The notes beneath the pieces are model-generated. The model was not told the DNA's origin. It was given only the letters and a program-made list of their open reading frames with translations, and did no database searches. Positions 11,193 through 14,100 of a stretch of 64,000 nt of DNA are shown here, piece by piece. The position numbers and the translations under genes were made by a program. Source of the stretch: Yuukianura sp. NJ FZ-2021 (taxonomy: Eukaryota); NCBI GenBank assembly GCA_046563655.1, contig CM102290.1, positions 3,534,001 through 3,598,000 on the forward strand. Direction: 5' to 3'. The number at the start of each line of letters is the position of its first letter. The first letter of the stretch is position 1.

Positions 11193-14100
11193 ATGCTGAC
11201 CAAGTTCGAGAGCAAGTCAGCAAGGGTCAAAGGACTGGCGTTCCACCCCAAAAGACCATGGATTCTTACGAGGTAAATGTTAAAACCGAATCATCTGTTA
11301 CATGTTCCCTGGATTAAGTGCTGTCACGCTTGCGATTAATGAGTCATCACTGTAATTAATGGAACCACCGTATGGATGTCGATTTATTATTCTGTTTCTG
11401 TTTAGTTTGCACAATGGAACGATCCAGTTATGGGACTACCGGATGTGTACCATGATTGAAAAGTTCGAGGAACATGATGGCCCTGTCCGTGGTGTGTGCT
11501 TTCATAATCAACAACCTCTGTTTGTATCTGGAGGTGATGACTACAAAATTAAAGTAAGTTCAACGATTACATAACATTCTTTGTTTTTGAAAAACATAAC
11601 TGACATTGTTCGTTTTTATTTTGTAGGTTTGGAACTACAAGCAGCGCCGTTGCCTGTTCACTTTGCTTGGTCATTTGGATTACATCCGAACAACGATGTT
11701 TCATCACAAGTATCCATGGATTTTGAGCGCATCGGATGATCAGACAATTCGGATTTGGAACTGGCAGAGTCGTCAATGCATCTGCATTCTCACTGGACAC
11801 AACCATTACGTCATGTGCGCTCAGTTTCATCCCGTTGAAGATCTAATTGTTTCGGCATCTTTGGACCAAACTGTTCGTGTCTGGGACATCACAGGTATTA
11901 CAGGAAGTCAGGGTAAGTCACTGAAAGAAAAGTTCGGGGAGATGTGACTACACTTTTCCTTGGCGGTGATAGGCTTATCGATCCCTAAGATTTTCTCGCT
12001 CTGTTTGGCATATAATATTAAATGCTTAGTACATCTTCCCGATCTGTCTTTGGGTGGCTTATAGCTGATGGATTTAGAAAATTATACATTGGGTTTATTT
12101 AACGTTTTCAACACTAAAATACAACCTACCTAAACACATTTATTTTCCTGAATTACAAAAGGACTGCGGAAGAAGAACACTGCTCCTGGTACGGCTCAGG
12201 ACGAACATTTACGTCACCCGGGAACTACAGATTTGTTTGGCCAGTCGGATGCTGTTGTACGACATGTTCTGGAGGGTCATGACCGTGGTGTGAACTGGGC
12301 ATGTTTTCATCCCACTTTGCCCCTTATTGTTTCTGGAGCAGATGATCGTTTGGTCAAGTTGTGGCGTATGAATGAGGCCAAGGTTGGTCTTTTTTCATAT
12401 GATTTTCTTCACAAAGAAAGTTTTGATATTAATTTTAGTTTTTGAAACAACTATCAATTTGTAGGCTTGGGAAGTTGACACTTGCCGTGGACACTACAAC
12501 AACGTCTCCTGTGTCCTGTTCCATCCACGTCAAGAATACATTTTGTCCAATTCTGAAGACAAGAGCATTCGGATTTGGGACATGACGAAACGTACGTGTC
12601 TTCACACATTCCGACGAGAACATGATAGATTTTGGGTCTTGACTGCCCATCCGACTCTGAACCTGTTTGCTGCTGGGCACGATTCTGGAATGATCATTTT
12701 CAAGGTAAAATACACAGACCTCTTGACCTGAACAGAGATTGTACATGTAATATTTAGACTAATAAATACATTTCATATTTTGATCTTAACAGTTGGAGCG
12801 CGAAAGGCCGGCATATGCTATTCATGGAAACTTGATTTACTACGTCAAGGACCGTTATCTTCGCCGTCTGGATCTGACAACATCCAAGGATTCTGCGATC
12901 ATGCAACTGCGTGGTGGAAACCGACCTCCTGTACACAGGTATACACGAAATCTACAAAATAAGCTTCGTTTACTATTGTGTTTTATTTTACCATGTGATT
13001 CAACTTTCAGTATGTCGTACAATCCTATGGAAAACGCCGTACTTCTGACTACGAGGGCAACAAATATCGAGAACAGTAGTTACGAACTGTACACAATTCC
13101 GAATGATGGTGAGCAAAATGAAACTCCGGACTGCAAGAAATCATCTGGCATGACCTGCATTTGGGTTGCGAGAAATCGCTTTGCAGTTTTGGACAGAACT
13201 CAATCAGTGAGTAGCTAAGAATTAATTCAGTGCTGGTAACAAGTATCAACTAATCTGTTTCTTTCTTTTTCTGCAGCTTTCAATTAAGAACCTGAAGAAT
13301 GAAGTCAACAAGAAAATTCAAGCTACAAATTGTGATGAAATCTTCTACGCTGGAACTGGCATGCTCCTTCTCCGTGAACCAGAATCACTGACTTTGTTTG
13401 ATGTTCAACAGAAACGGTAATTATCAGAGCTTAGTGTTAAAAAGTTGTCACGATGGGAATACATGATGTATTTTGTTTGAAAATTGAGCAGTGTTCTGGG
13501 TGAAGTGAAGGCCTCCAAAGTTCGTTACGTTATTTGGGCAAATGATTTGAGCTACGTGGCGCTTTTGGCCAAGAGAACAATCACTCTTTGTAATCGGAAA
13601 CTACAGATTCTGTGCACTCTGCAAGAGAGTACTCATGTCAAGTCTGGAGCATGGGATGACTCTGGAGTCTTCATTTACACGACAAGTAACCACATCAAAT
13701 ACGGAATGCTCAATGGGTAAAAGATCAATATTGACTCCTGAATGACATAGGAATATTCGTTTCATGTGTTTTGTAACTTTTCTAGTGACAATGGAATTAT
13801 TCGGACCTTGGATTTGCCAATTTACATTACTAAAATTCGGAACCACCAAGTCTTCTGCCTGGATCGACAAGCTAAAGCTTGTGTTCTAAATATCGACCCG
13901 ACGGAATATCGTTTCAAACTGGCTCTCATCAATCGAAAATATGATGAAGTAAGTTATCCTTATCCTAAGCTAACTGGGGATTATAAAGTACTAACCTCTA
14001 TTGTGATTTATAGGTTCTCCACATGGTTCGTAATGCGAAATTAGTTGGCCAATCTATTATTTCCTACTTGCAAAAGAAAGGCTATCCAGAAGTAGCCCTT

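Follow-up and report, generated by a model that had tools for sequence, protein, structure and literature searches.

The stretch of DNA analysed here, referred to below as the window and numbered from its first letter, comprises 64,000 nt of Yuukianura sp. NJ FZ-2021 (GenBank assembly GCA_046563655.1, contig CM102290.1, positions 3,534,001 to 3,598,000 of the forward strand). Its plus strand contains the 5' part of the gene for coatomer subunit alpha (COPA), and our subject is intron 3 of this gene, in which a long predicted RNA stem covers the second of two in-frame 5' splice sites. The gene was modelled as 16 exons and 15 introns, the introns measuring 133, 73, 267, 82, 88, 70, 75, 69, 65, 64, 67, 79, 119, 65, and 66 nt; 14 of these were considered reliable, the doubtful intron 13 (15095-15213, 119 nt) being left out. 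Exon 3 (11627..11894, +) encodes a stretch of WD40 blades sharing 85-92% identity with named COPA proteins. A variable COPA exon is 45-57% identical to its nearest named COPA proteins and 56-65% identical to its best, unnamed matches; since the named ones are this distant and come from mixed phyla, the comparison does not identify the gene as that of an arthropod. The exon ends V-W-D-I-T-G, contributing only the first base of the Gly codon, and is followed by intron 3 (11895..12161, +) and exon 4 (12162..12382, +). The 3' junction of exon 4, 12382^12465, is spliced in a 264-nt RNA contig from one metatranscriptome run (window 12323-12380^12463-12668). A first-pass annotation, made from the sequence alone, had placed the end of exon 3 at 11894, GT dinucleotides at 11895 and 11913, the intron 3 acceptor, and the start of exon 4 at 12162, and all of these could be read directly. 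It was also correct that intron 3 is the longest COPA intron, and it exceeds the runner-up (133 nt) by a factor of two. Its acceptor, AAG/G (12159..12161, +; a slash marks the splice junction here and below), is the sole AAG acceptor among the 15 modelled introns.

In the spliced model, the Ile codon near the end of exon 3 (ATC, 11888..11890, +) specifies residue 164, as had been proposed by counting from the N-terminus. Alignment agreed with this count: residue 88 of exon 3 has residue 164 as its counterpart in the COPA chains 9qpq_D and 5a1u_C (1224 aa), and the codon is therefore homologous to the I164V editing site of mammalian COPA. The same codon begins a 9-nt near-tandem duplication (ATCACAGGT / ATTACAGGA, 11888..11905, +; 7 of 9 positions identical) that straddles the exon 3 donor. 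Copy 2 (ATTACAGGA) has GA at the place of the donor GT of copy 1. The near-duplication accounts for an ITG-ITG repeat in the read-through sequence and indicates that the first 11 bases of intron 3 are a local duplication lying outside the hairpin described below.

Two potential 5' splice sites lie at the start of intron 3. Use of the proximal site, CAG/GTATTA (11895..11900, +), gives the canonical protein WDITG/LRKKN. The distal site, AGG/GTAAGT (11913..11918, +), was read directly from the sequence 18 nt further downstream, and the list of open reading frames showed that the intervening segment (11895..11912, +) is a stop-free, in-frame extension of six codons that would add ITGSQG; both of these points had been made in the first-pass annotation. 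To compare donor strengths, duplex energies with an 11-nt 5' end of U1 RNA were calculated for 16 donor sites in COPA. The distal donor formed the strongest duplex of the 16, at -10.0 kcal/mol. The proximal donor, at -7.2 kcal/mol, fell within the range of the other 14 modelled donors (-2.9 to -7.7 kcal/mol) and is not a weak site for this gene, a correction to the first-pass annotation. Apart from intron 3, none of the 14 reliable introns had a second strong donor at a distance of up to 60 nt, and in intron 3 this decoy is both in frame and open.

The distal donor is located within one arm of a long hairpin. The first-pass annotation had proposed pairing of 11907-11950 with 12027-12069, and the minimum-energy fold obtained with RNAfold reproduced it exactly, with a 5' arm at 11907..11950 (+), a 3' arm at 12027..12069 (+), and between them a 76-nt apical region (11951..12026, +) containing small sub-hairpins. 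The stem comprises 38 bp, 32 of them Watson-Crick and six G·U (12 AU, 9 GC, 6 UA, 5 CG, 4 GU, and 2 UG), and is interrupted by one G/G mismatch, one U/U mismatch, and three small bulges. The region 11900-12075 folded at -59.9 kcal/mol, compared to a mean of -43.2 kcal/mol for shuffled sequences (z = -4.33), and none of 200 shuffles was as good; for the larger region 11860-12165, z was -2.88 and none of 100 shuffles was as good. When GC-corrected stability was compared over 2553 windows, each 176 nt long and read on both strands of the 64-kb window, the intron 3 stem ranked third, behind 39776-39950 and 4951-5230. It is rare in the window, yet not unique. The most stable locus after GC correction is an AT-rich hairpin at 39830-39945 (+), whose long stem is nearly perfect and where the fold of 39760-39990 has a z of -7.2. 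At 5080-5130, clustered TGAGTCA / TGACTCA palindromes make a tight hairpin, the surrounding region (4940-5230) having a z of -3.9. A second candidate stem in intron 3, which would close the base of the intron by pairing 11895-11906 with 12145-12156 (12 nt, 83% complementary), was rejected as being at chance level, since it was one of 10 such pairs within 601 nt.

The stem is considerably stronger on the strand that is transcribed with COPA. Its reverse complement folded at -38.9 kcal/mol, leaving a gap of 21 kcal/mol to the sense strand, and a gap at least this large occurred in 33 of the 2553 windows. Differences between the arms pointed in the same direction: the six differences of the transition type all produce G·U pairs in the sense RNA, with no A·C among them (one-sided binomial P = 0.016, or 0.03 with the terminal pair removed). 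Since symmetric decay of a DNA palindrome would yield G·U and A·C equally, the excess of G·U points to RNA of the COPA strand, if modestly. The earlier observation that differences between the arms are G·U-compatible was thereby borne out. The further claim, that selection acted on RNA structure and the arms are not simply a DNA inversion, would fit a duplex that is unusual and is stronger on the sense strand, but the strand statistics are modest.

We next considered how the fold would affect the two donors. Partition-function folding of three pre-mRNA contexts (306, 461, and 756 nt) gave a mean unpaired probability of 0.12 for positions -3 to +6 of the distal donor, i.e., ~88% paired, with eight of the nine positions at or below 0.04. 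For the proximal donor the mean was 0.43-0.57 across the three contexts. These predicted values agree with the earlier proposal that the stem buries an in-frame distal donor, and in the predicted fold the donor consensus at 11913-11918 lies within a stable helix, as expected of a structure-sequestered 5' splice site. The reading that we tentatively favour, and to which we assign a little less than an even chance, is that intron 3 contains a structure-masked tandem pair of 5' splice sites, in which the stem hides the distal donor and the proximal donor is used. According to this model, the 38-bp sense-strand stem would lock the distal AGG/GUAAGU into a helix while the proximal CAG/GUAUUA, 18 nt upstream and in the same frame, would stay about half accessible. 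Since the U1 small nuclear ribonucleoprotein needs single-stranded RNA, the stem should favour splicing at the proximal site, with canonical WDITG/LRKKN coatomer alpha as the product. Were the stem melted or unwound, the distal site could be used and would lengthen the loop immediately following Ile164 by ITGSQG. As a side effect, 163 nt would be looped out in the hairpin, so that the effective intron would measure ~104 nt, within the 64-133 nt spanned by the other COPA introns. That the stem forms in vivo, influences the choice of donor, and is kept by selection is what we infer from these folds and energies.

Helices that sequester 5' splice sites have been described for the MAPT exon 10 stem-loop, SMN2 exon 7 TSL2, and the 5' splice site of murine leukaemia virus (PMC13606898, PMC1802598, PMC2794156). 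In these cases, a helix over the donor consensus reportedly limits access of U1 and shifts the choice of splice site or exon, much as is predicted for intron 3. However, those systems rely on short hairpins formed locally at the donor that is normally used, whereas in intron 3 the arms of the 38-bp stem are separated by 76 nt, the stem covers the distal, alternative donor, and the authentic proximal donor is left free.

To place the intron in a phylogenetic context, exon 3 was used to scan metagenomes, and the best 80 of 469 relatives were kept. Both exons were located by tblastn in 71 of these loci; in 54 of the 71, exon 3 ran directly into exon 4 in a single open frame, with nothing inserted between them. 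The closest relative found was locus L001 (exon 3 identity: 86.5% nt, 99% aa). In L001 (1-3110), exons 1-4 are contiguous (…GAC ATT ACA GGG TTG CGC…) and introns 1-3 are gone, while intron 4 onward is kept, so the locus must represent genomic DNA from which introns 1-3 are absent; its COPA gene is a case of intron loss at the 5' end. L001 encodes only WDITGLRKKN at the junction, and the hairpin-bearing intron is therefore dispensable in that lineage. An intron occurs at the same phase-1 position in L002, L006/L009, L038, L019, L004, and five loci from termite gut (L014-L017 and L029), and the intron position is therefore old. Among the 80 loci, no orthologous hairpin-bearing intron was found. 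Seven of the intron-bearing loci were folded (the five termite-gut loci, L019, and L004) and gave z values of -0.1 to +2.2, i.e., no stable fold, and the intron of L006 is AT-rich with no obvious hairpin by eye. Judged from the sequence of L001, which lacks an intron here, the hairpin is lineage-specific. The description of the stem as part of an ancient control point consequently could not be upheld, given L001 and the seven unstructured introns. Variation was also assessed within three near-identical DNA assemblies carrying two organism labels; of five DNA runs and one metatranscriptome, the analysis covered four (X1, X2, X3, and X6). The arms contained no substitutions, a weak result since only ~1.5 would be expected; a T>C change was present at 12139, and one assembly had a 5-nt insertion (+TGTTT) in the loop, behind 12001. 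Separately, a 10.7-kb contig of run X3, which comes from the same sample and touches the window at 12465-12502, contains a divergent COPA-like segment that is coding straight across the position of intron 4 and may be a paralogue or stem from another organism.

Several of these observations weigh against the proposal that intron 3 is a structure-masked tandem donor. The proximal donor is of a strength usual in this gene and may win unaided. The folds are equilibrium folds that leave out co-transcriptional kinetics, and the 3' arm is transcribed ~115-150 nt after the distal donor. The statistics of strand bias are not only modest but partly fixed by how the stem was delimited. The sole RNA contig covers the next junction and neither of the intron 3 junctions. 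The closest relative manages without the stem, having no intron at the junction, and the absence of a stable fold even in loci with distal in-frame donors (described below) indicates that masking is not general at this junction. Finally, at least two further strong hairpins in the same 64 kb indicate that foldback DNA is not rare here.

Some of the same facts would be expected if the stem were the relic of a neutral foldback insertion or local inverted duplication, resembling a miniature inverted-repeat transposable element (MITE), within an intron of ~100 nt. The GTAAGT would then be a passenger in one arm, silenced by the fold of the element itself, in frame and open by chance and under no selection. 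We regard this explanation, the main alternative, as a substantial possibility, though one that falls well short of an even chance. Its appeal lies in the dimensions of the intron, which is twice as long as any other in the gene and of ordinary length (104 nt) once the hairpin is subtracted; with foldback or MITE insertions it shares ~160 nt of sequence, bounded by long inverted arms, in what would otherwise be a short intron. The two other strong hairpins of the window (39830-39945 and 4940-5230), the absence of the intron from L001 and of a fold from other lineages, and the polymorphism data, which are compatible with neutrality, would all fit. By our own estimate, moreover, an offset that is a multiple of three combined with six open codons would arise by chance about one time in four. 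However, neutral foldback DNA predicts many genomic copies and no covariation, and no second copy of the arms was found in the 64-kb window, nor any match with a meaningful E-value among the 80 metagenome loci. No clear target-site duplication flanks the stem either, the only candidate being a 3-nt GGA at 11903-11905 and 12070-12072, which is at chance level. The six G·U pairs, lack of A·C, and 21 kcal/mol advantage of the sense strand are likewise unlike the symmetric decay of a palindrome. If the stem is nevertheless merely a neutral foldback, the finding is an ordinary one.

Additional evidence on the junction itself came from relatives in which a second in-frame donor is present at the same place. 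In the five termite-gut loci, an open, in-frame AAG/GTACGA lies 21 nt beyond a first donor G/GTATA; L019 (+21 nt) and L004 (+27 nt) likewise have open distal donors after a G/GTAT first donor. When the termite exon plus its extension was used to search proteins, COPA isoform X1 of Zootermopsis nevadensis covered it fully. Indeed, Blattodean COPA is annotated in RefSeq and GenBank models in two forms, WDISG-IANNLEG-LRKKN and WDISG-LRKKN. The insert is present in Zootermopsis X1, X2, X4, and KDR20569, in Periplaneta americana X1, and in Cryptotermes secundus X1, and is missing from Zootermopsis X3, Periplaneta X2, and Cryptotermes X2 (pairs with and without it: XP_021917711.1 vs. XP_021917713.1, XP_069693951.1 vs. 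XP_069693952.1, and XP_023701384.1 vs. XP_023701385.1, respectively). The IANNLEG form matches the +21-nt distal donor of the five termite-gut loci. Since an identical 7-aa insert occurs in one cockroach and two termites, these annotation models argue for a real and conserved alternative donor in Blattodea. COPA isoforms of three amphioxus species carry two additional residues (LG or LV) at the junction; B. floridae X2 reads WDIAVLRKK, with Val for Gly. Overall, the motif was present in 136 of 190 proteins and an insert in only two representatives. Variable sites among the five termite loci (exon, 20 of 267; extension, 2 of 21; intron, 13-16 of 100) were too few to speak to constraint on the extension. 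No description of this pattern of COPA junction variants was found in literature searches. The Blattodean arrangement resembles that of intron 3 in its location (after WDI[ST]G, phase 1), its in-frame distal donor, and its G/GTAT first donor, but differs in its offset (+21 vs. +18 nt), in an insert of unrelated sequence, and in having no stable structure predicted around the distal donor in the five termite-gut loci. The suggestion that the junction is a control point thus gains precedent from the annotated in-frame variants of Blattodea and amphioxus, while its structural component has no counterpart in the termite-gut loci.

By analogy with Blattodean +IANNLEG, the distal donor of intron 3 might itself be used appreciably, producing a COPA isoform with six additional residues, in which case the stem would be a tunable gate whose response to temperature, helicases, or ADAR sets the ratio of the two forms. 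The extension is in frame and open, its donor matches consensus, both forms are annotated in three Blattodean species and amphioxus has its +2-aa variants, and L019 and L004 have open distal donors as well. The insert would also fall two residues after Ile164, where the I164V substitution is reported to impair binding of dilysine motifs (PMC12295206). We nonetheless consider appreciable use of the distal donor decidedly unlikely. The site is predicted to be 88% paired, the sole RNA contig lies outside the junction, and L001 encodes only the short form without an intron. In addition, the ITGSQ tail was unmatched among the proteins listed, which included no near-identical COPA, and 89 of 90 motif-bearing proteins were without an insert, in a database from which this species is absent; the inserts of the different lineages are unrelated in sequence.

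The homology of Ile164 raises the question of editing, and recoding at this codon through the intronic duplex had been entertained in the first-pass annotation. In human and mouse, I164V in COPA is documented as a target of ADAR2 (PMC9718120, PMC12295206), with VWD[I>V]SGLR as the edited tryptic peptide in human (PMC12295206); for mouse Copa, an I/V entry is tabulated with 10% editing and no conserved adjacent stem (PMC5654063). The mammalian site and intron 3 share the gene, the homologous residue, and a post-transcriptional event close to the 3' end of the exon. However, editing requires the target A to be inside a duplex, and here A11888 lies 19 nt outside the stem. For the Ile164 codon, the predicted unpaired probability was 0.85 in both longer contexts (461 and 756 nt) but 0.46 in the shortest (306 nt), and no alternative pairing partner for the end of exon 3 was found in the folds or in a complementarity search of 601 nt. 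Nor is a duplex kept in relatives, L001 lacking the intron and the seven folded loci lacking a stable structure. Recoding at Ile164 is therefore not what the predicted fold favours, and an I164V-type role for the stem is not supported and appears unlikely. In the GluA2 R/G-site hairpin, the intronic partner strand near a 5' splice site likewise couples structure to splicing, and the hairpin includes the edited exonic adenosine; the intron 3 stem differs in being wholly intronic, starting 13 nt past the donor.

A broader version of this explanation holds that the stem is an ADAR substrate either in directing I164V recoding or through promiscuous editing that alters the distal donor or the stability of the stem. 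An intronic helix of 38 bp, rich in A-U pairs and nearly perfect, is the sort of RNA that ADARs edit, and by analogy promiscuous editing within it is plausible. As a whole, we regard this explanation as highly improbable, even with the homology of Ile164 confirmed and with I164V established as a mammalian site, in view of the position of A11888 and its unpaired codon, the loss of intron 3 from the nearest relative, and an RNA contig that does not extend to exon 3. Reports of COPA recoding in invertebrates were not found in the literature either, as judged from titles and the opening parts of abstracts.

Since a stable hairpin is present on the sense strand of the intron, a precursor of a small RNA (miRNA-like, a small interfering RNA hairpin, or a small nucleolar RNA) was also considered, and is in our view extremely improbable. 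Rfam gave no match at gathering scores over the whole window and no family within the stem even at E-values up to 10, so an intronic small nucleolar RNA or microRNA, which the first-pass annotation had proposed to check in this way, finds no family that fits the stem. The sole overlap with intron 3 was a minus-strand match to snoR74 at 12080-12191 (20 bits, E = 5.3; gathering score 44). A 76-nt branched apical region would also be atypical for an animal microRNA precursor.

Just upstream of COPA, and head to head with it, a WD40-repeat gene occupies 8880-10420 on the minus strand. From its open reading frame translations, it presumably resembles the U4/U6 snRNP protein Prp4.

Taken across lineages, the surface loop after Ile164 could be a recurrent target of post-transcriptional diversification, altered by I164V editing in mammals, by seven residues in Blattodea, by two in amphioxus, and here by six residues gated by a selected stem; in this full form we consider the proposal unlikely. 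Under it, the stem would act as a switch governing how much variant COPI coat is produced, possibly one with altered cargo binding. Since I164V is reported to affect binding of dilysine cargo (PMC12295206), small inserts two residues away could tune the retrieval of cargo by COPI. The hiding of splice sites by RNA structure is a known principle, but there are few well-defined natural examples in which a long-range stem lies over tandem in-frame donors, and intron 3, with 267 nt, two donors, and one stem, offers a compact and testable case.

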